64,000 nucleotides of DNA, taken from Escherichia phage vB-Eco-KMB43. The notes under the pieces were generated by a model. The model saw only the letters and a program-made list of their open reading frames with translations. It was not told the DNA's origin and ran no database searches. The stretch is taken from the sequence record OR525698.1; one strand, given 5' to 3'. Shown here piece after piece: positions 14,982-38,278 of the stretch. The first letter of the stretch is position 1; each line of letters begins with the position of its first letter. A program made the translations under genes and the position numbers.

Positions 14982-15011
14982 ATTATAGGGGATCACCGAT
15001 CCCCCTGTCAA
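14982..15011 (-). promoter_or_regulatory. PeSL early promoter (TTGACA-GGGGGATCGGTGATCCCC-TATAAT)
   Basis: Consensus -35/-10 with GC stem-loop in spacer. Confidence 0.6.
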
Positions 15012-15022
15012 CAACTTTTTAG

Positions 15023-15538: not shown

Positions 15539-15539
15539 G

Positions 15540-15872
15540 TTATAGTCTCCTGAATGGATCATCACGTAAATCAATATCTTTTAAGAACTCATCCCATGAA
15601 TGGCGGATATTGTTCTTAATTCTCCAGATAAGCGCAGGGATTGAACGCTCTCCCATCTGGAAGTATGGATCATATGATCCGTATGCCCAATATGCTACTA
15701 CAATTCCACAATCAGCGCAATAGTATTCTATTTCACTTGCTGGCGACCAAAGTCCATCAATATGATCGGTGATCTTGCTTTCGATGTTATGGCTATGACA
15801 ATCAGGGCAACGGATGCAATGACCTTGTTTATCGTAATTTGACGTTAGCGAATACTTAAACAATCTCATCAT
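15540..15872 (-). CDS. zinc-ribbon protein (CxxC...CxxC)
   Basis: CIRCPDCHSH ... YYCADCG cysteine pairs; coupled to flanking genes. Confidence 0.5.
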   Translation of the reverse strand: MMRLFKYSLTSNYDKQGHCIRCPDCHSHNIESKITDHIDGLWSPASEIEYYCADCGIVVAYWAYGSYDPYFQMGERSIPALIWRIKNNIRHSWDEFLKDIDLRDDPFRRL

Positions 15873-16585
15873 AGATCCTTATTTGCTTCAAATACTGCCT
15901 TTGCGAATCCTCGCGGGGTAAGTGACCTGATAGTCTTTGTTTTCGTTCCTTTCCCGCCTAGCTTAGAATGCTGTTTACTGTACCCTTTATTAATCTGCAA
16001 AGGTTTCTTTTCTGGCATTATAAAGCCTTGTCCGGTCCATAAGCAAGTCTTTTTCGGGTACATATCACGGGCGGCGATATACTCAGGAAAAGTAGGATGT
16101 TTATCATCTTCCGGCAAATAACCGCCATATTCCCACGGATGGAACATATAATCAGGCTTACGCCACATGCTAGAGATAACGCTTACAGGATTCTCTATCA
16201 TGTAGGGAACTCCTAGCCATTCACCCAAATAAGCGGTTATTTTAGCTGCCCGTACATCATGAACTTGAATCAATGGTCCTTGCTCTCGTTTCTTTCGTTC
16301 AAAGTGTGCAGCGCCACTAACAGCTAAATTGGTGCACGGTGGGAATGCAAAGATAATATCCGGTTTCCCCCATTCAAGGTCCATTGCTCTTTCCAGCCAG
16401 TTCAAATCAATCCAGGTGTTTACATAGGTAATGTTTGGATGTTCAAATCTGGTATTATACTTTTTGTATGTACCGTGGTCGGCGTCATCCGCATTAAAGC
16501 AGACTACCTTATGACCTGCTTTAGCCCATTCTAGCCCCATTATCCCCGATCCGTCAAAGTTACAGAATATTAATTTTTGTTTCAT
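15869..16585 (-). CDS. minimal C5-cytosine methyltransferase-like protein (238 aa, no obvious target recognition domain)
   Basis: Motif I-like FDGSGIMG, motif IV AFPPCTNLAVSG, motif VI ENP, motif X-like LTPRG. Confidence 0.55.
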   Translation of the reverse strand: MKQKLIFCNFDGSGIMGLEWAKAGHKVVCFNADDADHGTYKKYNTRFEHPNITYVNTWIDLNWLERAMDLEWGKPDIIFAFPPCTNLAVSGAAHFERKKREQGPLIQVHDVRAAKITAYLGEWLGVPYMIENPVSVISSMWRKPDYMFHPWEYGGYLPEDDKHPTFPEYIAARDMYPKKTCLWTGQGFIMPEKKPLQINKGYSKQHSKLGGKGTKTKTIRSLTPRGFAKAVFEANKDL

Positions 16586-16827
16586 ATACGCCCCTTTAAT
16601 CCAACACAGATTTTAGAAGGTTCTTTGCCGTGCCACATTAAGTAAAGTCCATTAATGCGGCCTTGTTTTGTATATGATTCTTTTCTGATCTTCTTATAGT
16701 GTCGTGCTTCCTCAGCCGATTGTTTAGAATACCAATCATAAAGGAAGAGGCACAAAGGCCAACCATTAGCGGCCTTAATGCAGTTATTAAGAAATTCCTT
16801 ATTGCGTTTAATTAATTTTCTTTTCAC
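16582..16827 (-). CDS. hypothetical protein (81 aa)
   Basis: ORF overlapping neighbours by 4 nt within operon. Confidence 0.5.
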   Translation of the reverse strand: MKRKLIKRNKEFLNNCIKAANGWPLCLFLYDWYSKQSAEEARHYKKIRKESYTKQGRINGLYLMWHGKEPSKICVGLKGRI

Positions 16828-17075
16828 GCTGCCCCCATTGGTTTGATAGTAACAGAATCTAAAAGACCTTTGTTAGCCAGTTCGCGGCAAGTTTTCAGAT
16901 CCGCAACTTCCCAGCCAGCCGCAATCAGGTTATCGATGAGGCTGTTAGCAACTTCTTCGCTCATGAAAGAGCACTGTTTGCCGATGGTGTAGCGTACACG
17001 CTGTAATTTCAGTTTACGGAAGCCTTTAACGTTCAGGTCTTTAGCGATTTTCTTTGCGGTTTCGATGTTAGCCAT
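16824..17075 (-). CDS. hypothetical protein (83 aa), first gene of the PeSL-driven operon
   Basis: AGGAGA RBS, PeSL promoter at 17115-17144. Confidence 0.5.
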   Translation of the reverse strand: MANIETAKKIAKDLNVKGFRKLKLQRVRYTIGKQCSFMSEEVANSLIDNLIAAGWEVADLKTCRELANKGLLDSVTIKPMGAA

Positions 17076-17114
17076 TGTTTGATTCTCCTAAGTGGTATCT
17101 AGTCTTGATGGTTG

Positions 17115-17144
17115 TATTGTAGGGGAGTTATCCTCCCCTGTCAA
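17115..17144 (-). promoter_or_regulatory. PeSL early promoter (stem GGGGAGG/CCTCCCC)
   Basis: TTGACA with GC palindrome; drives operon 17075 to 15023. Confidence 0.5.
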
Positions 17145-17158
17145 CACTTTTTATAAAA

Positions 17159-17326
17159 TTATTTGTTAATTTCCGGTGCGTTGCTAGGATAGTAACCTTC
17201 TTTAACTCCGAGGTATTTCGCAACCATCCCTACAATCTTCTGTGCTACTACAATGTCAAATTTCAGATAATCTTCGCCGTGGGTTTCAATGATATATGCT
17301 TCACATGCTGCTTTAGTCTCGAACAT
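17159..17326 (-). CDS. hypothetical small protein (55 aa), paralog of 20780-20947
   Basis: MFETKAACEAY...NAPEINK; near-identical copy elsewhere; PeSL upstream. Confidence 0.45.
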   Translation of the reverse strand: MFETKAACEAYIIETHGEDYLKFDIVVAQKIVGMVAKYLGVKEGYYPSNAPEINK

Positions 17327-17359
17327 TTTGATTCTCCTATTTCGTTTCGGTATGTGTGT

Positions 17360-17388
17360 ATTATAGGGGATCTCCCGATCCCCGTCAA
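17360..17388 (-). promoter_or_regulatory. PeSL early promoter (TTGACG-GGGATCGGGAGATCCCC-TATAAT)
   Basis: Consensus hexamers with stem-loop spacer. Confidence 0.6.
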
Positions 17389-17404
17389 CAACTTTTTTTT
17401 AAAA

Positions 17405-17686
17405 TTATTCGTGATTAGTTTCGATGTTGTGCATTTTGCACCAGTTCAGCCAATCACCCAGATCCTGATAGTTAATGCTTTTATCTGCTGCCATCGTTTT
17501 TGTCTTGATACCCATATGTGCGTTATGAGTAAGCATTTTTACAGTGAACTCAATTTTATCACCTTTAGCTTTAACATCAACCAGTTTGGTCCACTGGCTA
17601 CCAGCGCCGCGAATGTTCATACCAACGATGTTTCCGATGTATGCTTCTTTGTTTTTCAGGATTTCGGTTGCTTTGATGAATTTCAT
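17405..17686 (-). CDS. hypothetical protein (93 aa)
   Basis: ORF after PeSL promoter with GGAGAATCAA leader. Confidence 0.5.
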   Translation of the reverse strand: MKFIKATEILKNKEAYIGNIVGMNIRGAGSQWTKLVDVKAKGDKIEFTVKMLTHNAHMGIKTKTMAADKSINYQDLGDWLNWCKMHNIETNHE

Positions 17687-17719
17687 TTTTGATTCTCCAG
17701 TTCGTTTCGGTATGTGTGT

Positions 17720-17748
17720 ATTATGCTATTTTCTTACTTTGGTGTCAA
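17720..17748 (-). promoter_or_regulatory. early promoter (TTGACA-17-CATAAT), PeSL-related without clear stem
   Basis: Hexamers at correct spacing plus shared CACACATACCGAAACGAA leader. Confidence 0.5.
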
Positions 17749-17757
17749 CAACTTTTT

Positions 17758-18027
17758 TTAGATATTTTCAGAAATAAATTTTAAAACTTGACGTAAATGT
17801 TTCTCATCTTTGATAGTCGCCGGAAGTTCTTCTTTTACTTCCTGTGCAAGATAGATATTTCCGTTCCAAGTGAAAGATCCGTCTTCGTTTACGCGATAGC
17901 TGAACATCCACTCGCAATCATTTTCGATTTCATATACACACAGAAGAGTGTAATCTTCAAAGCTATTGATTTCAAGGTCGAAGCCGTGACGTTTTGCAAA
18001 GTTGGTAGTGGTTTTAGTCAGTGCCAT
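17758..18027 (-). CDS. hypothetical protein (89 aa)
   Basis: ORF after PeSL promoter. Confidence 0.5.
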   Translation of the reverse strand: MALTKTTTNFAKRHGFDLEINSFEDYTLLCVYEIENDCEWMFSYRVNEDGSFTWNGNIYLAQEVKEELPATIKDEKHLRQVLKFISENI

Positions 18028-18068
18028 TGTTTGATTCTCCTAAGTGGTATCTCGTCTTGATGGGTGTA

Positions 18069-18096
18069 TTATGCTATAGGCGTGATCTGGTGTCAA
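18069..18096 (-). promoter_or_regulatory. early promoter (TTGACA ... CATAAT)
   Basis: Hexamers upstream of 17758-18027 ORF. Confidence 0.5.
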
Positions 18097-18344
18097 TGCT
18101 TTTTTTAATTTTATGCAATAAAAAGACGACACTAAGGTCGGCACATTTTAAAAATTCTTGCCATATATGCAAGCCTCATAATCTAGAGGATGACCGCCAA
18201 TCCTACCCGGCTTAATATTCCAACCGCATCGATATTTGCTGACCATGCTAACAGTTTCGGTTCTTAGAGCATTTTCTTTGCAAATCATACCCCATAAATT
18301 CTTTTCTATAAGGACAGTCCGCTTTGCAAGTTGGCGGTTCTACG

Positions 18345-18536
18345 TCATTTAGCGGGTCGGAAGCAGTTGGCTTTATTATCAATTCTTTGTTTGCAATAAT
18401 CATAAGCACATCCCATTGAAGACAATTTAACATCTTCGCAATAAGTGTTGAATCCGTCAAACACGGTCACTTCGTATTTGACTCCATCAGCGATAGCTTT
18501 TACTTTATACCATCCATGCTTGTATAAAATCTTCAT
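18345..18536 (-). CDS. hypothetical Cys-containing protein (63 aa)
   Basis: GAGGAAAT RBS plus ATG right after PeSL. Confidence 0.45.
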   Translation of the reverse strand: MKILYKHGWYKVKAIADGVKYEVTVFDGFNTYCEDVKLSSMGCAYDYCKQRIDNKANCFRPAK

Positions 18537-18568
18537 CTTTATTTCCTCAATCTCGTTTCGATGGGTGT

Positions 18569-18598
18569 ATTATGCTATAGGCTAGACCAGGTTGTCAA
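18569..18598 (-). promoter_or_regulatory. early promoter (TTGACA ... CATAAT)
   Basis: Hexamers upstream of 18345-18536 ORF. Confidence 0.5.
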
Positions 18599-18621
18599 CA
18601 ACTTTTTTAATTTTTTGGAAA

Positions 18622-18647
18622 TAAAAAAGCCGACGCTAAGGTCGGCT
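18622..18647 (-). terminator. terminator
   Basis: Hairpin AGCCGAC-GCTAAG-GTCGGCT with A-run. Confidence 0.55.
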
Positions 18648-18654
18648 AATAAAA

Positions 18655-18963
18655 TCATTTAGACAAATAATCATTCTGTGCAATCCGGTCGGCGTATGCT
18701 GGTGTTACGTCAATCGCCAACACTTTAACGCGTGCTTTCTTGCGACCTGGGTTTTCTCGTAACCAGTGCTCATGACCGTGCACATTTTTATATTTTGATG
18801 CGGTTTCGAAGGTACGGATCGGACCTGGATAATCTGCGTAAAGGATCTCTAGGTCTTCGGTGATGTAAAAATATACATCATAATTACTGTTCTCTAGTTT
18901 AAGCAGAGAATTGCGAAATTGTGGTAAATTCTCGCGGGTAAATTCAACTACAAGATTTTTCAT
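18655..18963 (-). CDS. HxHW-motif small protein family member
   Basis: Shares H.HW and LAIDVTP motifs with five paralogs; start at ATG 18963 with GAGGA RBS. Confidence 0.5.
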   Translation of the reverse strand: MKNLVVEFTRENLPQFRNSLLKLENSNYDVYFYITEDLEILYADYPGPIRTFETASKYKNVHGHEHWLRENPGRKKARVKVLAIDVTPAYADRIAQNDYLSK

Positions 18964-18988
18964 AGTGATATCCTCATTCAGATAGATT

Positions 18989-19007
18989 AAAAGGGGCTTA
19001 ACGCCCC
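18989..19007 (-). terminator. terminator (GGGGC-TTAAC-GCCCC hairpin family)
   Basis: Same hairpin as the 14461 copy. Confidence 0.55.
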
Positions 19008-19012
19008 GTATA

Positions 19013-19300
19013 TTAAAACAGTCCTTCCTGTACACCGTAGTAGAGTTCGTCACTGATAATTTCATTAATGCGACGGTGTGCATATTCCTGATTTGCGAAG
19101 TTGTCAGCAAGTTCTACTTTAGTTTCGCCGTCATGAGTCCATTTAGTGATAACTTTACCATCTGCAAATTTGAAGTTGAACTCTTTAGCTACTGCATCGC
19201 GTACCAGACGTGCGAACTTGTTGTTACGGATTGCATTATCGGTTTCGTGTGCAGCGTGAGCAAATTTGTTAACTTTCAGAGTGATAGTAATGTATGCCAT
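19013..19300 (-). CDS. hypothetical protein (95 aa), AKEFN-motif pair with 22182-22493
   Basis: ORF after PeSL; shared motif RDAVAKEFNFK. Confidence 0.5.
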   Translation of the reverse strand: MAYITITLKVNKFAHAAHETDNAIRNNKFARLVRDAVAKEFNFKFADGKVITKWTHDGETKVELADNFANQEYAHRRINEIISDELYYGVQEGLF

Positions 19301-19346
19301 AATTTGATTCTCCTAGTTAGAAAGTGTATCTCGTTTCGATGGGTGT

Positions 19347-19375
19347 ATTATGCTATACACCCGATCCATTGTCAA
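19347..19375 (-). promoter_or_regulatory. early promoter (TTGACA-17-CATAAT)
   Basis: Hexamers upstream of 19013-19300 ORF. Confidence 0.5.
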
Positions 19376-19707
19376 CGCCTTTTTATAAAATAATTTTCGA
19401 TATCTTTATGATGTTTTTCTCGTGCTTGGTCTGCCTCGGCTGGCGATACGTTGGAAGCGATAATCTTCACTACTGTTGCACCTTTTTCGGTGTCCGACAC
19501 CCAATGATTATGGAAACCGCTATTATTAAACACTTGATAAGAAAATGATTTAATGCTAGGGAAATTATATGTGTAATAGCGTACCTTTAATTCTGAATCT
19601 ATGTATAGATAGATCACCGCACCTAGATAGACCGTCTCACTCGTTCCATCAACTAACAGTAGAGTATTTCGCAATTCTTCTAAATTGTCTTTTGTAAGAA
19701 AAATCAT
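19372..19707 (-). CDS. HxHW-motif small protein family member
   Basis: FHNHW ... IIASNVSPAEADQAREKHH. Confidence 0.5.
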   Translation of the reverse strand: MIFLTKDNLEELRNTLLLVDGTSETVYLGAVIYLYIDSELKVRYYTYNFPSIKSFSYQVFNNSGFHNHWVSDTEKGATVVKIIASNVSPAEADQAREKHHKDIENYFIKRR

Positions 19708-19721
19708 AGTATAATCCTCAA

Positions 19722-20045
19722 TTAAACCAAATTAACTTTGGTGTTGTGGTGTTTTTCTCGTGCTTCGTCCGCTTCTTCCGGTGTCACGTTACGAGCGACT
19801 ACAATAACACTTGCTGCCTCTCCGTGATGAGAGATCTCTACCCAATGGTTATGATTTGTGAATCCGTGTTTTATTGCGTAAGCGAACGGCTTGGACGTCC
19901 AGTAGTTACTATAATATCGTACATTTAGATCGCTATCAATGTACAAATATGTGCTGTCGTTTACATTGCCACTAACAACAAAAACAAGACAATTGCGAAG
20001 ATCTGGCAATATTTTGTCTGTCAATTTTATAATGTGACTGTTCAT
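19722..20045 (-). CDS. HxHW-motif small protein family member
   Basis: NHNHW ... VVARNVTPEEADEAREKHH; ATG at 20045. Confidence 0.5.
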   Translation of the reverse strand: MNSHIIKLTDKILPDLRNCLVFVVSGNVNDSTYLYIDSDLNVRYYSNYWTSKPFAYAIKHGFTNHNHWVEISHHGEAASVIVVARNVTPEEADEAREKHHNTKVNLV

Positions 20046-20047
20046 AA

Positions 20048-20257
20048 TTAACACCACTCAAGAGTTTTTGAAAACACATCTATCCATTGTTGAGTATATG
20101 CAGTTTCTTTCCACGAGACAATACCAGTAGAATAATGATTCTTGTTTCCAGAAAAGGACGGGCATTTTGATGCATCTTCCATCATCTTTTCGGCGAACTC
20201 TGGTTCGTATACTCGCAAGATCTGTTGATATGCTTTGTAGTCTTTAAATTTGCTCAT
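20048..20257 (-). CDS. hypothetical protein (69 aa)
   Basis: ORF in overlapping operon. Confidence 0.45.
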   Translation of the reverse strand: MSKFKDYKAYQQILRVYEPEFAEKMMEDASKCPSFSGNKNHYSTGIVSWKETAYTQQWIDVFSKTLEWC

Positions 20258-20522
20258 AATCGTTAACTACCTTATCAGCTTCTTTTATTGTTTTTACATC
20301 AACTGCGATAACCCGTAAAGGTTCGTCGTGGTTCCACCAATGATCGTGAATATCAGCTTGTGATTTATCACCAAAGGAATCACGAATATCATTTTTACAT
20401 TTATAGCTAATGTGACCGTCATAGTCAACATAAAGGTAATTATCGAAAATCGGCGTTTTTAAGATCATGCCGAAAAATCTTTCTTTGTGTGTCTTATCCA
20501 GTGTTGCAGTAATTCGCATCAT
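20244..20522 (-). CDS. HxHW-motif small protein family member
   Basis: HDHWW ... IAVDVKTIKEADK. Confidence 0.5.
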   Translation of the reverse strand: MMRITATLDKTHKERFFGMILKTPIFDNYLYVDYDGHISYKCKNDIRDSFGDKSQADIHDHWWNHDEPLRVIAVDVKTIKEADKVVNDYEQI

Positions 20523-20534
20523 AATATATTCCTC

Positions 20535-20714
20535 TTAGAAAGGGATGGTCATTTCTTGAGCTTGTACATTCTCGTTAGGATTAAACTTCATCCAACCGAT
20601 ATTGTCTACCAGCATATGCACATTTTTATCATATCCTACGTGAGTAGTCAATACTAAATGTGCTTTACCTTCAACGATGATTTCCATGTACTTCTGAACT
20701 TCGATAGCTTTCAT
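20535..20714 (-). CDS. hypothetical small protein (59 aa)
   Basis: ATG 20714 behind PeSL and GGAGAATCAA leader. Confidence 0.4.
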   Translation of the reverse strand: MKAIEVQKYMEIIVEGKAHLVLTTHVGYDKNVHMLVDNIGWMKFNPNENVQAQEMTIPF

Positions 20715-20747
20715 TTTTGATTCTCCGTTTGTTGTCTTGATGGGAGT

Positions 20748-20776
20748 ATATTACTACTCCCTTTAATCATTGTCAA
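20748..20776 (-). promoter_or_regulatory. PeSL early promoter (stem GGGAGTA/TACTCCC)
   Basis: TTGACA plus palindrome GGGAGTATATTACTACTCCC. Confidence 0.5.
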
Positions 20777-20779
20777 CTA

Positions 20780-20947
20780 TTATTTGTTAATTTCCGGTGC
20801 GTTGCTCGGATAGTAACCTTCTTTAACACCCAGATATTTTGCGACCATTCCGGTGATCTTCTGTGCTACTACAATGTCAAATTTCAGGTAGTCTTCACCG
20901 TGGTTTGCTACAATGTATGCTTCGCATTCTGCTTTAGTCTGGAACAT
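20780..20947 (-). CDS. hypothetical small protein (55 aa), paralog of 17159-17326
   Basis: MFQTKAECEAY...NAPEINK; PeSL upstream. Confidence 0.45.
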   Translation of the reverse strand: MFQTKAECEAYIVANHGEDYLKFDIVVAQKITGMVAKYLGVKEGYYPSNAPEINK

Positions 20948-20981
20948 TTTTGATTCTCCTATATCTCGTTGGTATGTGTGT

Positions 20982-21010
20982 AGTATAGGGGATCACCGAT
21001 CCCCTGTCAA
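20982..21010 (-). promoter_or_regulatory. PeSL early promoter (TTGACA-GGGGATCGGTGATCCCC-TATACT)
   Basis: Same stem-loop spacer as the 14982 copy. Confidence 0.6.
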
Positions 21011-21017
21011 CAACTTT

Positions 21018-21326
21018 TTATTCTTCATCTTCATCTTTATCTTGATATGCGTACGTCATAAATTTGTCTGCTACTTTGTCCGCGTTTTCAGGTTCTACGT
21101 CTGACGCTAGGACAACAGCTAGTTCTGTTTTGTCGTTTCCATCATACCAATGATTATGAGTGTCGTTTTCTTCGATATAAAACGAATCATTTGGAGTTGT
21201 GCGACAATATACGTCTAAATTCCCATCGATATAAAAGATCCAATCCGAATACAAAATGATTGTTTTAGCAAGATTTTTATTGCCTTCAACGAAAGGTTCG
21301 GCTACAAACAAATTAGTATGTTCCAT
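21018..21326 (-). CDS. HxHW-motif small protein family member
   Basis: THNHW ... VVLASDVEPENADK; start ATG 21326 with GAGGAAAAA RBS. Confidence 0.5.
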   Translation of the reverse strand: MEHTNLFVAEPFVEGNKNLAKTIILYSDWIFYIDGNLDVYCRTTPNDSFYIEENDTHNHWYDGNDKTELAVVLASDVEPENADKVADKFMTYAYQDKDEDEE

Positions 21327-21343
21327 AGTATTTTTCCTCAAAA

Positions 21344-21535
21344 TTATACAGCTTCGTAAACTTCCCAATGTCCAACACCAGCACGCTTAACGAAAAGGTT
21401 TTCTTTTATGTTATTCATAAACGTCTGGATGGATTTAATTCGTTTGGAAGGTTTCCAGTCTTCGTTGGTATTGCGTCGATACATCATAACATTACCAGAC
21501 CGCTTATATTCAGCAACCATTTTAAGACCACACAT
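21344..21535 (-). CDS. hypothetical protein (63 aa)
   Basis: ORF track; promoter-like motif upstream. Confidence 0.4.
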   Translation of the reverse strand: MCGLKMVAEYKRSGNVMMYRRNTNEDWKPSKRIKSIQTFMNNIKENLFVKRAGVGHWEVYEAV

Positions 21536-21580
21536 AATATTATCCTCAATTTGTGGGAGAGTATTACCCTCCCGATTATT

Positions 21581-21612
21581 GTTATACTACATTACGCAAA
21601 ATGGCGTGTCAA
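21581..21612 (-). promoter_or_regulatory. early promoter-like element with nearby GC palindrome
   Basis: TTGACA present; -10 weak; palindrome GGGAG...CTCCC displaced. Confidence 0.3.
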
Positions 21613-21912
21613 TGCTTCTTTTGCTGTTCCGCTAAGATTCTCTATCTCTCCTGGCATAACATCAACCGCCAGAACTTCTACAACATCCTCTGATCCTAAC
21701 CAGTGAGTATGACCTTTGTAGAACTTGATAATCAGACTACCTTCCTCATCCCATTTAACGCTATCGCTAGCCCACCACACATCACCGTCGATAAAGTTGA
21801 TGTAAAGCACACTACGCCACATTGAATTAATTACTTTCAATACTGCGCCTTTCATATCTTCCACGGTGTGGTCTTCCATTTTGAAGACCTCGCCTACCTG
21901 AACTTTTGCCAT
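21592..21912 (-). CDS. HxHW-motif small protein family member
   Basis: GHTHW ... LAVDVMPGE; RBS GAGAGGTGA. Confidence 0.5.
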   Translation of the reverse strand: MAKVQVGEVFKMEDHTVEDMKGAVLKVINSMWRSVLYINFIDGDVWWASDSVKWDEEGSLIIKFYKGHTHWLGSEDVVEVLAVDVMPGEIENLSGTAKEALTRHFA

Positions 21913-21929
21913 TTAGTCACCTCTCTTTA

Positions 21930-22109
21930 TTACATAACAATTACGCCAGCCGTTGAAAGTTGATGTTTCAACTGAGCATTTTCTGCTACTGTCAAATCAA
22001 TGATTTCTTGTGACGCTGCAATCATATAGCCATTGGTGATATTGTTTTGCATCAGTTCAATGGTTTCTTCGTTGTAGCGGATTTTAGCGATGATTTCGTT
22101 GAAGTTCAT
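21930..22109 (-). CDS. hypothetical small protein (59 aa)
   Basis: ATG 22109 behind PeSL; MNFNEIIAKIRY... Confidence 0.4.
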   Translation of the reverse strand: MNFNEIIAKIRYNEETIELMQNNITNGYMIAASQEIIDLTVAENAQLKHQLSTAGVIVM

Positions 22110-22143
22110 AATTGATTCTCCTAGTTCGTTTCGGTATGTGTGT

Positions 22144-22173
22144 ATTATAGGGGAGTTTAACCTCCCCTGTCAA
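22144..22173 (-). promoter_or_regulatory. PeSL early promoter (TTGACA-GGGGAGGTTAAACTCCCC-TATAAT)
   Basis: Consensus hexamers with stem-loop spacer. Confidence 0.6.
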
Positions 22174-22181
22174 CAACTTTT

Positions 22182-22493
22182 TTAAAGTTTTTCCATGATA
22201 ACGGTCATAATTACATCTTCTGCGCGAGCGGTCAGATTATCAGCGTCAGCATGTGGGCGGTTGGTTGTTACAGAGATAACACCGTTGCGCACTGGTTTGA
22301 TATTGATATCAAGATGATCCGCGAAACGTTCGCCAGTTACAGAATGAATTTTGGTGTTAAATTCTTTTGCCAGTGCCTTGCGAACTTCACGAATCAGGAT
22401 AGCGTTTTTCAGTTGGTTCTCCGCGCTCATGGTCTTCTGAGTGTTCATGGTTCCGTCGAAGTCAATCATTGGCAGCGTTACGATGTATTTCAT
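22182..22493 (-). CDS. hypothetical protein (103 aa), AKEFN-motif pair with 19013-19300
   Basis: Shared motif REVRKALAKEFNTK; PeSL upstream. Confidence 0.5.
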   Translation of the reverse strand: MKYIVTLPMIDFDGTMNTQKTMSAENQLKNAILIREVRKALAKEFNTKIHSVTGERFADHLDINIKPVRNGVISVTTNRPHADADNLTARAEDVIMTVIMEKL

Positions 22494-22537
22494 TTTTGAT
22501 TCTCCGTTTAAGAAAGTGTGTTTCGTTTTGATGTGTG

Positions 22538-22567
22538 TAGTATAGGGGATACGTGATCCCCTGTCAA
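22538..22567 (-). promoter_or_regulatory. PeSL early promoter (TTGACA-GGGGATCACGTATCCCC-TATACT)
   Basis: Consensus -35 with stem-loop spacer. Confidence 0.6.
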
Positions 22568-31606: not shown

Positions 31607-32083
31607 TTAATCATGACCGTGATTTGCAATATCCGCTCGCGTCTTATCTTTGTGATTTCCTACGTCAAAGACACGATAACCATTTTCACGCAAAACTTTA
31701 ATCACTTCTGGGTTATCCTCAAAGACTCCGACAACTTCATCTTTATCAAAGGATTTAATTACCTCTAATTTGATGTGATAGTCTTTACGGGAATCGGTAC
31801 GGCCTCTCATAAAGATTTTATCAAAACACACCCCGTTAGAAATTAACCAATCAATTGTTTCCATGTAAGCATGTGAACTTCGTCCTGTGAGGATGTAAAT
31901 CAAATGCCCGTTGTCGGAAAGAGCATTAATAACACGAATTACATCGTAAATGGGGGAATCTCCCCCACATGCTTTGTTATATTCGATCCATGACTCGACT
32001 TTATCAAGATTTTCGGTTGGCATCTTTGCTAGTCGATGCGTTGGATCTGTGATCGTAAAATCTAAATCGACAAAATATATCAT
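31607..32083 (-). CDS. HAD-superfamily phosphatase-like protein
   Basis: N-terminal DxDxT motif (FVDLDFTITD); overlaps nrdB stop. Confidence 0.5.
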   Translation of the reverse strand: MIYFVDLDFTITDPTHRLAKMPTENLDKVESWIEYNKACGGDSPIYDVIRVINALSDNGHLIYILTGRSSHAYMETIDWLISNGVCFDKIFMRGRTDSRKDYHIKLEVIKSFDKDEVVGVFEDNPEVIKVLRENGYRVFDVGNHKDKTRADIANHGHD

Positions 32084-33243
32084 AGATATTTCCCGAATCG
32101 GTTGTAGTCATCGTCTGTTAAATCGGTATTAACCTGAGATACCAGATACATAATCTCTACTTCTTGCGCTGCATTCTGTACTTCGTCAGAGTTTAACCAC
32201 TTACGCATCCACGGTAAAGGATGACGACGAACACTAAACGGGCTTTTCAGTCCGACAGCACGCATACGGGAATCTGCCAGGTATTCTACATAAGTTTTCA
32301 GAATTTCCGGTGACAATCCAGGAATTGACCCCATTGCGAATAGGTGGTCTACCCATTCTTTTTCTTGCTCGACAACATCCAGAAAGATTTTCGTTGCTTC
32401 GCCTTCAAGTTCTTCCGCAATCTGTTTCCACTCATCACCATCAGCCCCCGTTTGCCATTGACGAATAATGTATTGTGTGCCTTTTAAGTGAAGTTGTTCA
32501 TCACGCGCAATAAATTTCATGATCTTCGCGTTACCTTCCAGTAAACCACGTTCGGCAAAGCTGAAAGTACATGCAAAGGACACATAAAAACGGATTGCCT
32601 CCAGTGCATTAACGCAATGCATACACAGATAGAGTGATTCCATCAGATTGCGTTTAGTTTCTTCCACGTACGAAATGCTATCAGAATATGCATCAAGGTC
32701 AAATTCATTTTCAGAAGAACGACTAAAACTTTCTTTAGCGTCCTCGTATTCACGGATTTTCACCAGAACATCATCATAATATTTCCCGATAGATTCCGCT
32801 CGCTTCATGATAGCAGGGTTATCGATGATCTGGTCGAACTCACTAGCCGGATCAATGAAACAGTTACGCATAATGTGTGTATAGCTTCGGCTATGAATCG
32901 TTTCGCTGAATGTCCATGTTTGCAACCATGTATCGAGAGTTGGATCAGATACAATTGGACCAAATGCTGCGGACGGTGCGCGACCTTGAATAGAATCAAG
33001 TAATGTCTGATACTTCAAGTTTTCGGTAAAGAAACGCTTTTCAACGTCACCCATATTAAGATATTGAATGCGGTCGGTTGCAAGTGAAATCTCTTCTGGA
33101 CGCCAGAAAAATGACAATTGCTTTTCGATCAGTTCTTCAAATACTTGATGACGCTGAATATCATAGCGAGCGATACCCAACCCACTACCCAGAAACATCG
33201 GTTCGTTCATAATATCAACATGTTCGCGGTTAAATACGCTCAT
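32080..33243 (-). CDS. nrdB: ribonucleotide reductase class Ia beta subunit (uninterrupted, no intron)
   Basis: 387 aa, di-iron site helices (ARDEQLH), C-terminal NrdA-binding tail. Confidence 0.9.
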   Translation of the reverse strand: MSVFNREHVDIMNEPMFLGSGLGIARYDIQRHQVFEELIEKQLSFFWRPEEISLATDRIQYLNMGDVEKRFFTENLKYQTLLDSIQGRAPSAAFGPIVSDPTLDTWLQTWTFSETIHSRSYTHIMRNCFIDPASEFDQIIDNPAIMKRAESIGKYYDDVLVKIREYEDAKESFSRSSENEFDLDAYSDSISYVEETKRNLMESLYLCMHCVNALEAIRFYVSFACTFSFAERGLLEGNAKIMKFIARDEQLHLKGTQYIIRQWQTGADGDEWKQIAEELEGEATKIFLDVVEQEKEWVDHLFAMGSIPGLSPEILKTYVEYLADSRMRAVGLKSPFSVRRHPLPWMRKWLNSDEVQNAAQEVEIMYLVSQVNTDLTDDDYNRFGKYL

Positions 33244-33258
33244 TAATTCACCTCACTA

Positions 33259-33426
33259 TCACTTTTTAACACAAAAGAACTTAGTATTTCTGTTTATTTC
33301 GCTATCCTGCTGCAATTCCTGCACAGCTTCAAAACAATTTTGATATGATGAAAACTCTACGCTGGTAACAGTTCCTTTATTATATACGCCTACGCTAACG
33401 GAAAGCAATAACCATAATGTAGCCAT
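33259..33426 (-). CDS. hypothetical small protein (55 aa), signal-like N-terminus, tandem paralog
   Basis: MATLWLLLSVSVG...; TAATG overlap with upstream ORF. Confidence 0.4.
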   Translation of the reverse strand: MATLWLLLSVSVGVYNKGTVTSVEFSSYQNCFEAVQELQQDSEINRNTKFFCVKK

Positions 33427-33599
33427 TAGTTCACCTTTTGTTTTTCAACGCAATATAGATTCATAAAGCGTTTATTGTCTTCGCGGATAATCTCGCGAGC
33501 TTTAACGCAATCCTGCTTTGTTGCAAACTCAATGCTTGACATATTTCCGTAATTATACATTGAATTGCTTATTGCAATCAATAACCATACAGTAGCCAT
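33426..33599 (-). CDS. hypothetical small protein (57 aa), signal-like N-terminus, tandem paralog
   Basis: MATVWLLIAISNS...; AAGGTGA RBS; TAATG overlap. Confidence 0.4.
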   Translation of the reverse strand: MATVWLLIAISNSMYNYGNMSSIEFATKQDCVKAREIIREDNKRFMNLYCVEKQKVN

Positions 33600-33766: not shown

Positions 33767-33797
33767 AATAAAATCCTCACTTGTTTTTGATGGTTGT

Positions 33798-33826
33798 ATT
33801 ATAGCGGGGATTTCTCCCCGCGTCAA
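33798..33826 (-). promoter_or_regulatory. PeSL early promoter (TTGACG-CGGGGAGAAATCCCCGC-TATAAT), downstream flank of MTase cassette
   Basis: Core identical to the copy at 34696-34724. Confidence 0.65.
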
Positions 33827-34674
33827 CAGCTATTTGACAATCCATCGCAAGCATCAATGTAAGCACCTACAAAACTTTCTATAAAAAGTGCTCCGACTTG
33901 AGGAACTATCGCATTGCCATAACCGCGCAATCGTCCCATTGTTGAGGATACCCCATCAGCCAACAAGGGAATCGTGGGTTCAACAATTCGTTTTTTCCCG
34001 TCTCTGCATAGATACTCTGTTCCACTGTCCCAAAACCGTAATACATCTTCACTTGTTCTGATAAATTTCCCGGCGCTAGTGATTTCCTCCCCGTTGCAAG
34101 TCTCGCTTCCATTCTCCGTTGCATTGCTTCCGGCGATCTTGCTGATATATTCGTTACAGTAGGTGTTTGCCAACTCGTTAATAGCCCCGAAGAAAAGTCT
34201 GTCCCGCTTGTGCGGCGCACCGACGATATCACATGATAATACCGCAGCCCCGACACTGTAACCTTCTCTTTCCAATTCCTCGTGAAGATCATCCAACCAC
34301 CCCGTTTCGATAGCTTTTGCAACCTGTTCCCCAAAGAGCATTGGAGGTTTGCACGCTGACACGAGTTTAAGAAATGTCGGTGCAAGGTGTCTTTCGTCGA
34401 ACTTTCCTTTTTGCTTTCCGGCTCTTGAAAATGGTTGACATGGTGGCGATCCGGTCCATAGCCTTGTTGTTTCTGGTACTCCAGCGAGTTGCAATGCTCT
34501 TGACCACCCCCCAATCCCCGCGAAGAAGTGACATTGTGTAAATCCTTCCAGATCTCTAGGGGTGACTTCTGTAATTGATCTTTCATCGACATACCCATAA
34601 GGAATTAATTTGTTTGCTATAAGTTCACGTAACCAGTTAGCCGCGCCTTTATCCCACTCATTGTAATAATTCAT
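33823..34674 (-). CDS. DNA (cytosine-5)-methyltransferase, compact (283 aa)
   Basis: Motif I FFAGIGG, motif IV GSPPCQPFSRAG, C-terminal GNAIVPQV; GC-rich versus flanks; identical PeSL copies on both sides. Confidence 0.8.
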   Translation of the reverse strand: MNYYNEWDKGAANWLRELIANKLIPYGYVDERSITEVTPRDLEGFTQCHFFAGIGGWSRALQLAGVPETTRLWTGSPPCQPFSRAGKQKGKFDERHLAPTFLKLVSACKPPMLFGEQVAKAIETGWLDDLHEELEREGYSVGAAVLSCDIVGAPHKRDRLFFGAINELANTYCNEYISKIAGSNATENGSETCNGEEITSAGKFIRTSEDVLRFWDSGTEYLCRDGKKRIVEPTIPLLADGVSSTMGRLRGYGNAIVPQVGALFIESFVGAYIDACDGLSNSC

Positions 34675-34695
34675 TCTTACAATTCACCTCACATT

Positions 34696-34724
34696 ATTAT
34701 AGCGGGGATTTCTCCCCGCGTCAA
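34696..34724 (-). promoter_or_regulatory. PeSL early promoter (TTGACG-CGGGGAGAAATCCCCGC-TATAAT), upstream flank of MTase cassette
   Basis: Core identical to the copy at 33798-33826; overlaps nrdA stop. Confidence 0.65.
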
Positions 34725-34732
34725 CAGTTATT

Positions 34733-36976
34733 TTACAGCTTACAGGATGAACACTCGCTAGCGTCTTCCGTACCATCTGCACCGTCGCGAACGTTCGCAT
34801 AATACAGGGTTTTCAGACCGTAATATTGAGCAAACAACATATCATCTAACACATCAGCAATATCGACTTTACCAGTCTTATAAGTGCTTGGATCGTATGA
34901 TGTATTGGAACTAATCGCCTGATCCACAAACTTCTGCATGATCGCTGCCAGTGTCAGATAAGGCTTGTTACCTTTCTTGATCAGTGTCCAAAGCAGGTCA
35001 ATAACATCAGCATTATTCTCTACGTTCGGAATAACCTGATTAAATTGCCCTTCTTTCGATCCTTTAACCGATACAATCCCGCGAGGCGGTTCAATACCAT
35101 TTGTGCTGTTAGACACCTGAGAAGATGACTCACAAGGCATCAGCGCCGAAAGCGTACTGTTACGAATGCCATATTTTTTCAGGTCTTCGCGCAGTTCTTC
35201 CCAATCCATCTCATACACCGGATCAACCAGTTCATCTACTGTCTTTTTGTACCAGTCGATAGGAAGTTCACCGCGACCGTAGCGTGTTTCGTGCATCAGT
35301 TCGCAAGCACCCTTCTCTTTTGCGAGTTGCACACTAGCCTTAATCAGAGCATATTGCAAGCGTTCAAACGTTTTATGCGTAAACTCGTTAGCGTCTTCAT
35401 ATGTGAAGAAATTATCTGCTAGATATGATGCAAAGTTAGTAACACCAACGCCCAGAGAGCGACGTTTTTTGGCTGTCAGAGCTTGTTCTACAGGATAATC
35501 CTGATAATCTAACAGGTTGTCAAGTGCACGCACCATAACCATAGCAATGCGTTCTACTTCTTTCATGTTTTCGATATCGAAATTACCTAAAACATATGCT
35601 GCCAAAGTGCATAGGCTGATCTCTGAATCATCACGACCCATCGGTTTAGTAGGCAGTGCAATTTCACAACACAGGTTAGATTGTTTAATCGGTGCTACAT
35701 TACGAATAAACGCCCCGTGATTGTTCATGTTGTCTGTGAACGTTGGGTAGATTCGACCAGTGTTAAAACGTTCAATTGCCACCGCTAAAAACAGGTCTTC
35801 GGCTTTAACACGAGTTTTACGAACACTCGGATCTTTTTCCAGTTTTTCGTAAAGCTGGCGGAAACCTTCCTCATCTCGGAAGTACAGATCCCACAACAAG
35901 CCACCTGCAACATCTGGACTAAACAGAGTAATGTAATCCCGTTTAAGGAATCGCTCTACCATCAGGTTATTAATCTGTACGCCGTAGTCAAGATGGCGAA
36001 TGCGGTTATCTTCCACGCCCTTATTGTTCTTTAACACAATCAGACTTTCAAACTCTAAATGCCACATTGGGTAATAGAGTGTCGCTGCCCCGCCACGAAT
36101 ACCGCCTTGTGAGCATGACTTAACGGCAGTCTGAAAATGTTTCCAGAATGGGATAACGCCAGTATGACGAACTTCACCATGCCCGATCTTAGATCCTTCC
36201 GCGCGAATCATACCAGCATTGATACCGATACCAGCACGCTTGCTAATATACTTGATGATTGCATTTGCTGTTTCGTTGATGCCCTGCAATGAATCATCAG
36301 ATTCGATCACCACACACGAACTAAATTGGCGTGTTGGGGTACGCACACCTGCCATAATCGGAGTAGGCAGAGAGATTTGCTTATTCGCAACAGCATTATA
36401 AAAATCAATCACATGTTCAAGTCGATTTTCTGTCTCTTCTTGATGCAAGCACATACCGATCAGCATATACGCAAATTGCGGTGTTTCGATGATTTTCTTA
36501 GTGCTGCGATCCTGAACAAGATATTTCTCTTTTAACTGCATCGCACCAGCATAGGTCATTTTAAAATCAAGTTTATGGTCGATGAATTTCTCCAGATATT
36601 CCACTTCTTCACGGGAATATTTTTGCAGAATTTCGCGATCATATTTTCCGGTTGCAATATTACGCTCAATATGGCTATAAAAATCAATAGGTTGGAATTG
36701 ACCGTATACTGATTTACGAAGCGCGAACATTGCAAGGTTACTTGCTACATATTGATAATCAGGTGTTTCTACAGTAATGTTATCTGCGGCGACCTTAATC
36801 AATACTTTCTGGATATCATTGGTAGACATACCTTCTGTCAGAAGTGGTTCAACCATATCAAACAATTCATATGGATCAACGTTATGACCTTCGGCTGCCG
36901 CTTCCAGAATTTTCATTACTTTTTCTTTTTCAAACGGAACAGTCAGACCGGAAGACTTAACAACATTTTTAATCAT
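34733..36976 (-). CDS. nrdA: ribonucleotide reductase class Ia alpha subunit
   Basis: 747 aa, ATP-cone N-terminus, active-site NLCCEI, C-terminal CSSCKL. Confidence 0.9.
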   Translation of the reverse strand: MIKNVVKSSGLTVPFEKEKVMKILEAAAEGHNVDPYELFDMVEPLLTEGMSTNDIQKVLIKVAADNITVETPDYQYVASNLAMFALRKSVYGQFQPIDFYSHIERNIATGKYDREILQKYSREEVEYLEKFIDHKLDFKMTYAGAMQLKEKYLVQDRSTKKIIETPQFAYMLIGMCLHQEETENRLEHVIDFYNAVANKQISLPTPIMAGVRTPTRQFSSCVVIESDDSLQGINETANAIIKYISKRAGIGINAGMIRAEGSKIGHGEVRHTGVIPFWKHFQTAVKSCSQGGIRGGAATLYYPMWHLEFESLIVLKNNKGVEDNRIRHLDYGVQINNLMVERFLKRDYITLFSPDVAGGLLWDLYFRDEEGFRQLYEKLEKDPSVRKTRVKAEDLFLAVAIERFNTGRIYPTFTDNMNNHGAFIRNVAPIKQSNLCCEIALPTKPMGRDDSEISLCTLAAYVLGNFDIENMKEVERIAMVMVRALDNLLDYQDYPVEQALTAKKRRSLGVGVTNFASYLADNFFTYEDANEFTHKTFERLQYALIKASVQLAKEKGACELMHETRYGRGELPIDWYKKTVDELVDPVYEMDWEELREDLKKYGIRNSTLSALMPCESSSQVSNSTNGIEPPRGIVSVKGSKEGQFNQVIPNVENNADVIDLLWTLIKKGNKPYLTLAAIMQKFVDQAISSNTSYDPSTYKTGKVDIADVLDDMLFAQYYGLKTLYYANVRDGADGTEDASECSSCKL

Positions 36977-37045: not shown

Positions 37046-38278
37046 TTATACTGCCATTTGAGCGGTGATCGCTGGATGGCTTTGATAGTTGTGAATTTTA
37101 AAATCTTTCGGAGTCTTTGTCAATACCTCATCTAAAGATTTAAATTCCGGCAACTCAATTGTTGGTTTATCAAACGGAACACGGCTTAACTGTTCCATAA
37201 CTTGATCAAAATGGTTTTTGTAAATGTGAGTATCTCCACCAGAGAAAATCAGTTCTCCTACCTCAAGATCACACATTTTCGCTATGATGTGAGTTAACAG
37301 CGCATAGCTGGCGACGTTAAAGGGCAAGCCCAAAAAGCTGTCTACGCTTCGCTGAAACCACATACAAGACAGTTTACCTTCATTGACGTAGAATTGTACG
37401 AACGGATGACATACACCCAATACAGCATTATGTGTTCCTTGTACGTTCCATGAGTCAATGATGATACGTCGATCCGTTGGATTGTTTTTAATTTGTTCAA
37501 TCACGTTTTGTAACTGGTCTTCCCAAATCTTCGGGCGATAGACATATTCTTCATCGTCTTTAGTGCTTGATGTGTCTACGTCCATACTAACAAACATCGT
37601 GGTATCCGGTGCTATAATATCCCCACCCAGATAATCACTATCAAGCAGATAACCGAAATAACCATCATCTACCCATTCCTGGAATCCCCACAAGCAATAT
37701 GCATCATTAACAAAATTAGATTGAGTCTTCCAGTGGTCTGCTACTAAGAATTGATTATATTCAGAATCAAACTCTTCATAACGCATACCACGCCAGATAG
37801 CACATAAACGGTCTTCTGTGTCATTAGTTGGCGTAAAGTCTTCTACCCACGGGTGCTTAAATGTATGTGTATATTTGCTCTTAACGCGCTTAATTTTGAT
37901 TTCACCATGTGGATGAATCGGTTTGCGTCGCCACGCCATACCATACATATTTCCGACATTATAACCATTGAATCGCAATGGATTCTTTTCTTTCATATCA
38001 AGACAGTTGCCGCGCCAAATATCAAAGGCTTCCTCGTCAAACTTGCCGCGTGTAATTTCCTGTAAGCGACGGCGGTCAAGTGATCCCTCCATAAACCATA
38101 GCAATTCGCCAATTACAGAGGCTGTAGCCATCTTTTTAGTGGTCAGTAATGGGAAACCCTTGCTTAAATCAATTCGCATCTCTGCGCCGAATTTAGAGAG
38201 CGTACCTACCCCCGTGCGGTCTTCACGAGGACAGCCATTATCAAGAACATCACGCAATAGTTTCAAATATTCTTTCAT
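37046..38278 (-). CDS. td: thymidylate synthase with ~125 aa in-frame insertion
   Basis: N-terminal DRTGVGT, FPLLTTKK; catalytic region RRIIIDSWN...CHPFVQFYV...LGLPFNVASYALL; 410 aa versus ~286 in T4. Confidence 0.8.
   Translation of the reverse strand: MKEYLKLLRDVLDNGCPREDRTGVGTLSKFGAEMRIDLSKGFPLLTTKKMATASVIGELLWFMEGSLDRRRLQEITRGKFDEEAFDIWRGNCLDMKEKNPLRFNGYNVGNMYGMAWRRKPIHPHGEIKIKRVKSKYTHTFKHPWVEDFTPTNDTEDRLCAIWRGMRYEEFDSEYNQFLVADHWKTQSNFVNDAYCLWGFQEWVDDGYFGYLLDSDYLGGDIIAPDTTMFVSMDVDTSSTKDDEEYVYRPKIWEDQLQNVIEQIKNNPTDRRIIIDSWNVQGTHNAVLGVCHPFVQFYVNEGKLSCMWFQRSVDSFLGLPFNVASYALLTHIIAKMCDLEVGELIFSGGDTHIYKNHFDQVMEQLSRVPFDKPTIELPEFKSLDEVLTKTPKDFKIHNYQSHPAITAQMAV

Follow-up and report, generated by a model that had tools for sequence, protein, structure and literature searches.

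The 64,000-nucleotide stretch of Escherichia phage vB-Eco-KMB43 that we analyzed (OR525698.1; hereafter the window) carries, directly 3' of nrdA, an open reading frame (ORF) of 283 aa that is bracketed by two copies of one promoter. This locus raises the question of what the gene encodes, how it came to lie there, and whether it can be lost again. A preliminary description had seen in it a mobile early-gene cassette encoding a C5-cytosine methyltransferase (C5-MTase). The phage is a Krischvirus (an RB49-like T4-type phage), and we consider it probable that the unit is a single-gene accessory cassette of this genus, consisting of an orphan C5-MTase gene and one PeSL, located at the resident nrdA-proximal PeSL and gained and lost via the repeats. 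PeSLs are elements that have been defined in RB49 and phi1, where they have a stop codon upstream in an A/T-rich leader and a Shine-Dalgarno sequence plus ATG downstream, and where promoter and terminator activity has been demonstrated for some of them (Arbiol et al. 2010, PMC2839356). The same study found that 10 of the 14 ORFs that differ between RB49 and phi1 abut a PeSL, and described mini-circles excised by recombination between flanking PeSLs; later work dealt with such elements in further T4-like phages as well (Comeau et al. 2014, PMC4122927).

Several lines of evidence identify the elements that flank the ORF. Firstly, the 29-mer TTGACGCGGGGAGAAATCCCCGCTATAAT is present exactly twice in the window (33798-33826 and 34696-34724, minus strand, no mismatches), just as the preliminary description had it, and no match was found in 100 dinucleotide-preserving shuffles. 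The repeat pair extends to 43 nt in direct orientation, with 41 of the 43 positions identical, the first 33 without interruption, and a spacing of 898 bp. Secondly, both copies read TTGACG-17 nt-TATAAT on the coding strand, which corresponds to 11 of the 12 positions of the sigma-70 consensus in a promoter scan, and the spacer between the hexamers is filled by a stem-loop with a G-tract and a C-tract (7-bp stem GCGGGGA/TCCCCGC, GAAA loop) that on its own folds at -10.7 kcal/mol. The 66-nt context of the element has a folding z of -3.8, and none of 200 shuffles folds as well. Thirdly, as in the PeSLs of RB49 and phi1, a stop codon precedes the -35 box in an A-rich stretch and a Shine-Dalgarno sequence and start codon follow the -10 box: the nrdA stop codon TAA (34733-34735) falls inside the upstream copy, within TGTAAAATAACTG, and the downstream copy, whose -35 box is overlapped by the TGA stop of the methylase gene, precedes a leader in which GAGGA stands before the ATG of a 55-aa ORF. 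Judged by these sequence features, both flanking repeats are PeSLs in the sense of Arbiol et al., and the upstream one is presumed to serve as the early promoter of the methylase gene and as an attenuator of read-through from nrdA. One feature sets them apart: the stem sequence is not common to other PeSLs and occurs at the 3' end of nrdA only.

The comparison with related phages shows that the PeSL-ORF-PeSL arrangement postulated in the preliminary description is real and has precise boundaries. A 2.1-kb region around the ORF is 99.1% identical to that of Krischvirus LF73P4, 98.1% to those of Delraymugoa and Aragogtheria, and 98.0% to that of RB49. It is covered in full in only three of the 82 matching phage records, namely LF73P4, Delraymugoa and Aragogtheria, whereas in the remaining records (about 79) two pieces that span 1,203 bp account for a coverage of 59%, so that exactly the 898-bp unit is absent from the non-carriers. 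Similarly, a three-way alignment shows that RB49 has one PeSL, corresponding to the downstream PeSL of the window, precisely where the window has PeSL-ORF-PeSL. Thus, close relatives have just one PeSL in place of the flanked ORF, and the inserted unit of 898 bp consists of one copy of the nrdA-proximal PeSL, a 21-nt leader and the gene for the 283-aa methyltransferase. A search with a 49-nt version of the element among 58 Krischvirus genomes gave the same picture: it is present once per genome in the 55 non-carrier records, always at the 3' end of nrdA, and twice in the three carriers only. The element has been annotated as a promoter in the record of GEC-3S and as a terminator in that of Ec_Makalu_001, and two GenBank records already give the gene the label 'DNA methyltransferase'. 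In metagenome and Logan assemblies, too, look-ups of the exact protein placed the gene in no other order than nrdA, methylase, small ORF, nrdB. A 923-bp Logan contig with PeSL sequence at both ends was not counted as evidence for an excised circle, because a k-mer assembler yields such contigs at a repeat. The methylase is an accessory gene, found in about three of 82 relatives and frameshifted in one of them, and it is therefore not the modification scheme of the genus.

The ORF contains the motifs that the preliminary description had announced (FFAGIGG, GSPPCQPFSRAG and GNAIVPQV), and it matches Pfam family PF00145 (4e-19; 69.6 bits, cut-off 22) and the phrog_363 family 'DNA methyltransferase' (1.3e-71). 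Its best solved relatives are M.HhaI and M.HaeIII, both by sequence and by fold (AlphaFold2 model, predicted local distance difference test score (pLDDT) 75-91 over residues 1-165). Structures of Dnmt2 are also among the matches, by sequence and by fold; in the sequence comparison M.HhaI and M.HaeIII stand above them, and on homology the expectation of a DNA rather than an RNA methyltransferase has therefore held. Like M.HhaI and M.HaeIII, the protein has the catalytic Cys in PCQ (Cys79), the Glu of motif VI (Glu116), the Arg-x-Arg of motif VIII (Arg157 and Arg159) and the Gly-Asn of motif X (Gly253 and Asn254), and all these residues are invariant in an alignment of 38 homologues. The cofactor residues N5, D30, F50, F51, G53 and G56 are also invariant in these homologues, and E6 is present in at least 90% of them, so that the catalytic and S-adenosylmethionine (AdoMet)-binding residues are all conserved. 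On these matches the ORF is placed in the C5-MTase superfamily, with the DNA enzymes as its best match.

The motifs had been called 'textbook'. All of them are present, but their order is not the canonical one from I to X. Unlike in M.HhaI and M.HaeIII, the N-terminal segments are swapped, giving the order II-III-I-IV-...-X. In the HMMER alignment with M.HhaI, residues 36-66 map to positions 3-33 (motif I), residues 3-12 (YYNEWDKGAA) to positions 37-46 (YSNEWDKYAQ, motif II), and residues 67-163 to positions 70-169. When residues 42-66 were placed ahead of residues 2-37 in an artificial sequence, residues 38-41 being dropped, the match to PF00145 grew from profile positions 64-166 at 69.6 bits in the native order to a contiguous 5-166 at 91.9 bits (+22), and that to M.HhaI spanned 10-169 contiguously at 51.6 bits, versus 33.6 bits for the native sequence (+18). 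As for secondary structure, the prediction gives strand 2-4, helix 9-20, strand 28-30, strand 47-51, helix 54-63 and strand 72-76, an order that would fit a Rossmann fold whose first strand-helix unit now comes after strands two and three. A hidden canonical N-terminus was ruled out: an in-frame TAA lies 6 nt 5' of the ATG, making a longer N-terminus impossible, and the best relatives start at the same residues. Thus, when residues 1-86 were compared with 1.84 billion cluster representatives (clusters at 50% identity), 3,406 matches at E <=1e-10 were obtained, and in the best 150 of these the alignment always begins at or near the N-terminus of the matched sequence. The permuted order is therefore characteristic of a whole family, which is associated with phages and comprises more than 3,400 protein clusters. 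Known permuted C5 enzymes, M.BssHI and the plant DRM proteins, move motifs IX-X or VI-X; to our knowledge no swap of II-III and I has been described, although the literature on permuted C5 enzymes was only partly searchable.

The second unusual trait of the protein is found between motif VIII and the C-terminal block. In the family this region is a low-complexity segment whose length varies between a few tens of residues and, in the longest aligned homologue, about 200, and in which only a W...CRDGKxR hairpin is conserved; together with motif X, this hairpin makes up the C-terminal block W...CRDGKxR...GNAIVPQV. The variable segment of the window protein is among the shortest in the family, and residues 169-254 have a pLDDT below 50 in the AlphaFold2 model. 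The variable length, the low complexity and the low pLDDT suggest that there is no recognizable target-recognition domain, unlike in M.HhaI and M.HaeIII, where this domain is structured. Also unlike these enzymes, the methylase is not accompanied by a partner restriction enzyme. The proteins of phrog_363 that resemble it most are other orphan C5-MTases: that of Seunavirus NINP13076 (QXL90467) has 69% aa identity, and the 'C-specific methylase' of Kagunavirus K1G and K1H about 60% over nearly the full length. They have in common with the window protein the N-terminus MNYYNEWDK, the motif order and the C-terminal block CRDGK...GNAIVPQV, whereas their genes lie in ordinary operons without flanking PeSLs. 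We found no experimentally characterized phrog_363 C5-MTase in the literature.

Could a protein with these traits do something other than form 5-methylcytosine (5mC) in DNA? It might transfer another group, such as carboxymethyl from carboxy-S-adenosyl-L-methionine (Cx-SAM), it might methylate RNA as Dnmt2 does, or it might be inactive. The first of these options is suggested by CmoX of Synechococcus phage S-B43 (PDB 8yf3), which is likewise a phage-encoded protein of C5-MTase fold with the SPPC form of motif IV and ranks sixth, within the top ten, in the fold search; moreover, Cx-SAM is supplied by E. coli. However, the cofactor selectivity of CmoX depends on an Arg (R350) that replaces the Asn of motif X, and CmoX travels with cmoA and ligase genes (PMC12783734). 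In the family of the window protein Asn254 is invariant, and neither cmoA nor a ligase gene is present in the neighbourhood of the methylase. In addition, the motifs of CmoX are in the canonical order, and no match to it was obtained at the sequence level. Carboxymethyl transfer was rejected on the Asn/Arg difference. As to RNA methylation, Dnmt2 structures do match, but after de-permutation the DNA methylases outscore Dnmt2 (8e-13 versus 1.8e-5). Lastly, the permuted order, the lack of a recognizable target-recognition domain and the frameshift in one carrier would all suit a protein without 5mC activity, but the preservation of the catalytic and cofactor residues across more than 3,400 clusters argues against inactivity. 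Altogether we regard it as quite unlikely that the protein does not make 5mC in DNA. Given the invariant Asn254, the lack of cmoA and ligase genes nearby and the higher scores of the DNA methylases, AdoMet-dependent formation of 5mC in DNA is favoured and is the activity best supported by the sequence comparisons.

Such an enzyme would find ordinary cytosine as its substrate. The preliminary description had supposed that the phage does not use the hydroxymethylcytosine (hmC)-glucose scheme of T4, and this supposition was supported by a search with T4 gp42: its sole match in the window was td (E = 0.005), and the first 50 kb of Delraymugoa gave none. Consistently, Krischvirus genomes have been reported in a 2026 study to lack homologues of 5-hydroxymethyl-dCMP (5hmdCMP) synthase and glucosyltransferase (PMC13390438). 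In that study phage TB34 had canonical cytosine, whereas the 99.96%-identical Krischvirus SAP had fully modified cytosines by a pathway that was not identified. It is the absence of an hmC pathway and the canonical cytosine of TB34 that make unmodified cytosine the expected substrate. SAP and TB34 both lack the methylase cassette, and the cassette does not, therefore, explain the cytosine hypermodification of SAP. The likely function is early-expressed orphan 5mC methylation, and we infer that it serves anti-restriction. In the case of the carrier LF73P4, it has been reported that the phage is restricted by a restriction-modification (RM) island in a clinical E. coli strain, and a phage Dam is the sole anti-RM factor mentioned as possible (PMC12409345). 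As a separate observation, the window contains a second predicted DNA methyltransferase gene (15869-16585, minus strand, 238 aa; phrog_757, 8e-91; no Pfam match), which sits among the PeSLs at 14982, 17116 and 17360. In Delraymugoa it bears the annotation 'DNA methyltransferase', and the Dam that PMC12409345 mentions for LF73_P4 may be its product.

We now turn to the origin of the unit. The ORF had been described as visibly more GC-rich than its surroundings. There is indeed a modest excess (0.461, versus 0.405 for the window and 0.423 for nrdA), but the value is the third highest among the window ORFs of at least 120 aa and lies inside their range of 0.364-0.473, and the GC content at third codon positions (GC3) is 0.408, ordinary for window genes. 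The GC enrichment is thus weak evidence of foreign origin, and a strong compositional signal of it was rejected on account of the ordinary GC3. In favour of a foreign origin, the nearest genes outside Krischvirus are those of the Seunavirus phages (Vequintavirinae) NINP13076 and SalP219 and of Cronobacter phage Csp-D17, with 75% identity at the nucleotide and about 69% at the amino acid level, followed by rV5-like phages and Kagunavirus; other Straboviridae are absent from the matches listed. The Seunavirus homology at the nucleotide level comprises positions 71-845 of the query, that is, most of the coding sequence; it stops about 20 bp 3' of the ATG and reaches neither the leader nor either PeSL. 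A direct donor at the DNA level was not found, the best match outside Krischvirus being the 75% of Seunavirus, and complete E. coli genomes gave three weak matches, none of them covering 80% of the query.

Are the flanking PeSLs themselves derived from another locus? Besides the pair at nrdA, six PeSLs with a hairpin in the spacer occur on this strand of the window, at 14982, 17116, 17360, 20982, 22144 and 22539, and their stems and leaders are unlike those of the nrdA PeSL. These six (14982-22567, minus strand) have in common the pattern aaaaagttg-TTGACAGGGGA...TCCCCTATAAT-acacacataccgaaacgaa...ggagaatcaaa-ATG, and the stretch that they occupy marks a hyperplastic region of small ORFs. The leader of the methylase gene is likewise unlike the leaders of the other PeSLs in the window. 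It contains an extra AAT (34693-34695) right after the upstream -10 box (TATAATAAT) that is absent from Delraymugoa, LF73P4 and two metagenomic contigs, which makes the leader 21 nt instead of 18 nt long. By sequence, then, the flanking PeSLs are a duplicate of the resident, locus-specific nrdA-proximal PeSL and not a PeSL common to another locus. Hence the proposal of a mobile early-gene cassette stands as far as presence and absence with exact PeSL boundaries are concerned, but not in the sense of a mobile sequence common to several loci.

Besides the permuted motif order, a number of observations weigh against our reading of the unit as a mobile and functional cassette. A first group concerns mobility. 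In the exact-protein contig look-ups and the PeSL search the cassette was never found at a second genomic position, all copies being at the 3' end of nrdA, so that mobility is deduced from presence and absence only. A circle coming from another PeSL locus should leave chimeric repeats; the locus-specific repeats weaken the mini-circle route of integration, and the insertion route may have been a different one. Moreover, by their flanks the carriers are not clearly each other's closest relatives, the window being 98.1% identical to the carrier Delraymugoa and 98.4% to the non-carrier GoldenSnicker, so that the change may have been a gain or a repeated loss. A second group concerns function. The methylase gene of LF73P4 (OZ035795) lacks 2 nt, corresponding to window positions 34128-34129, so that its variable segment is frameshifted; the gene may be a true pseudogene, or the assembly may be at fault. 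One metagenomic copy (Logan) has W215C at a position that is invariant in the family. With a target-recognition region that is short, poorly predicted and hypervariable, specificity and even activity cannot be assumed, and in the literature we found neither an experiment on the activity or specificity of any member of this methylase family nor methylome data on one. The rarity of the gene, the frameshift in LF73P4 and W215C together suggest that its function is optional and possibly costly. The gene pair of the window and Delraymugoa differs by four synonymous and two non-synonymous codons, too few for a test of selection. In Delraymugoa the ORF ends four codons earlier, at a TAA that stems from the repeat; this codon has become TCA in the window through a T-to-G change, and the ORF there reads on into the -35 box.

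On the one hand, a related carrier may have supplied the insertion from its corresponding locus. On the other hand, the insertion may have been an illegitimate event, by recombination or template switching, with duplication of about 43 bp of the target, in which case the PeSL was the landing place and nothing more. Three observations are in line with the latter: both repeats are copies of the PeSL specific to this locus, which none of the 58 Krischvirus genomes has elsewhere; the duplicated block ends exactly at the -10 box, with a leader unrelated to other PeSL leaders; and the homology to the nearest donor-like genes is confined to the coding region. However, PeSL-bounded insertions and deletions are documented in the genus by the RB49-phi1 comparison (PMC2839356), identical repeats would also be expected if the circle had been excised from this locus in a related carrier, and repeats can recombine once present, however they were formed. 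We therefore think that an illegitimate insertion is unlikely, though it deserves to be kept in mind. By either route, the present repeats of 33-43 nt are substrates for a precise deletion that restores the arrangement of RB49.

The same property of the repeats is the starting point of a further explanation, according to which the cassette is ancestral to Krischvirus and was lost from most lineages by PeSL-PeSL deletion, rather than being inserted recently. Identical direct repeats of 33 nt favour deletion, the RB49 arrangement is the exact deletion product, the carriers are not obviously monophyletic by flank identity, and a methylase GC3 equal to that of phage genes is consistent with long residence. 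But an old duplicate would be expected to have diverged, whereas the repeats are still perfect, and the presence of the cassette in just three of 82 records, the nearest relatives in the unrelated Vequintavirinae and Kagunavirus, the absence of other Straboviridae from the listed matches and a leader that differs from all other PeSL leaders in the window likewise speak for a later arrival. An ancestral cassette thus appears quite improbable to us.

Returning to the preferred explanation, a single-gene accessory cassette at the resident PeSL, the following course of events can be proposed. Host RNA polymerase with sigma-70 would start at the upstream PeSL soon after infection, and the hairpin in the promoter spacer would attenuate read-through from nrdA. 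The downstream PeSL would end the unit and re-initiate transcription for three small ORFs and nrdB. The enzyme would use AdoMet to make 5mC in the otherwise unmodified cytosine DNA of the phage, and this 5mC would protect the DNA from 5mC-sensitive restriction systems. The cassette would have been gained, and could be lost, by homologous recombination between the direct repeats of 33-43 nt; its loss would yield the RB49 arrangement and an 898-bp circle, as in the PeSL model of Arbiol and Krisch. The rarity of the cassette, together with the one frameshifted copy, suggests that its benefit would be conditional, and a plausible cost is the exposure of 5mC to 5mC-dependent Type IV enzymes such as McrBC.

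How does the unit compare with known PeSL cassettes? RB49 and phi1, in which they were described (for example RB49 ORFan192; PMC2839356, PMC4122927), belong to the same genus as the window phage, and in them, too, one ORF lies between two PeSLs where close relatives have a single PeSL. The methylase cassette differs from them in three respects. Its cargo has a predicted function, unlike ORFan192-type cassettes; it lies inside the conserved nrdA-nrdB block of nucleotide metabolism instead of a hyperplastic region; and its PeSLs are identical copies of a locus-specific PeSL. We found no literature on the PeSL-methylase cassette itself. The novelty thus lies in the cargo, which has a functional annotation; the class of phage gene cassette to which the unit belongs is already known.

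The coordinates of the cassette, of its neighbours and of the protein motifs are given in Table 1. The gene of the cassette is on the minus strand, like the other genes in that part of the window. The preliminary description had placed the cassette between nrdA and nrdB as normally adjacent genes; it does lie directly 3' of nrdA, but three small conserved ORFs separate it from nrdB. These ORFs are found with or without the cassette and are also annotated in RB49, which means that nrdA and nrdB are not adjacent in Krischvirus.

Table 1. Positions of the cassette elements, neighbouring genes and methylase motifs (window coordinates, or residues of the 283-aa protein).
Feature	Position	Strand	Details
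nrdA	34733..36976	minus	Pfam ATP-cone, Ribonuc_red_lgN, Ribonuc_red_lgC; RB49 annotation; upstream neighbour, cassette directly 3' of it
Upstream PeSL copy	34695..34737	minus	-35 TTGACG 34719-34724; hairpin GCGGGGA-GAAA-TCCCCGC 34702-34719; -10 TATAAT 34696-34701
Methylase leader, -10 box to ATG	34675..34694	minus	Shine-Dalgarno GAGGTG 34685-34690; direct sequence reading
Methylase ORF	33823..34674	minus	ATG start, 283 aa, TGA stop; contains FFAGIGG, GSPPCQPFSRAG, GNAIVPQV
Downstream PeSL copy	33797..33839	minus	-35 33821-33826; hairpin 33804-33821; -10 33798-33803
Small conserved ORF, 55 aa	33599-33766	minus	homologue of RB49 ORF233c
Small conserved ORF, 57 aa	33426-33599	minus	homologue of RB49 ORF232c
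Small conserved ORF, 55 aa	33259-33426	minus	homologue of RB49 ORF231c
nrdB	32080-33243		beyond the three small ORFs
Motif II YYNEWD	residues 3-8
Motif III VDERSI	residues 29-34
Motif I FFAGIGG	residues 50-56
Motif IV S76-P-P-C79-Q80	residues 76-80		catalytic Cys79; aligned to M.HhaI PCQ
Motif VI GEQV (ENV equivalent)			Glu116
Motif VIII HKRDR (QxRxR equivalent)	residues 155-159		K156, R157, R159
Variable segment	residues ~169-224		low confidence
Motif X GNAIVPQV			Gly253-Asn254

Some further observations were made on the neighbourhood. No known RNA family reached its gathering score in the cassette region. An ORF of 230 aa (33906-34598, minus strand) in a second frame inside the methylase gene was treated as spurious, solely on its complete overlap and its atypical GC3 of 0.52, and is probably a by-product of the composition of the methylase gene. 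Two of the small ORFs (33259-33426 and 33426-33599) are paralogues that both match phrog_5579, and a 35-nt direct repeat of 80% identity spans their starts, which points to a local tandem duplication. The td gene (thymidylate synthase; 37046-38278, minus strand) encodes 410 aa, and its Pfam match is split in two by an insertion; T4 td has about 286 aa, and comparison with this length gives an estimated insertion of about 120-140 aa. The 410-aa form of td is also present in a Logan contig.

The family of permuted methylases without a recognizable target-recognition domain is the most interesting loose end of this analysis, more so than the cassette itself. One could imagine a large family of phage C5-MTases with motif I behind II-III, in which a disordered hypervariable segment has replaced the target-recognition domain and the resulting low specificity leads to dense methylation of the genome and broad anti-restriction; the 898-bp PeSL unit would then be a plug-in epigenetic shield that RB49-like phages gain and drop according to whether their hosts have 5mC-sensitive or 5mC-dependent nucleases. 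We put this picture forward tentatively, as a speculation that is unlikely to hold.

For the biology of the RB49-like phages, the cassette is a clear new example of a known route by which they gain and lose genes, and an unusually clean natural one, with PeSLs as its boundaries and a cargo of predictable function. It also draws attention to a methylase family that is very widespread among phages, has its motifs in a permuted order and lacks a defined target-recognition domain. Near-identical pairs of phages with the cassette (Delraymugoa, Aragogtheria) and without it (GoldenSnicker, RB49) exist in collections, and the costs and benefits of a phage 5mC methylase in the face of Type II and Type IV restriction are therefore directly measurable. 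As the cargo of such a unit, the methylase would give the mini-circle model a selectable phenotype.

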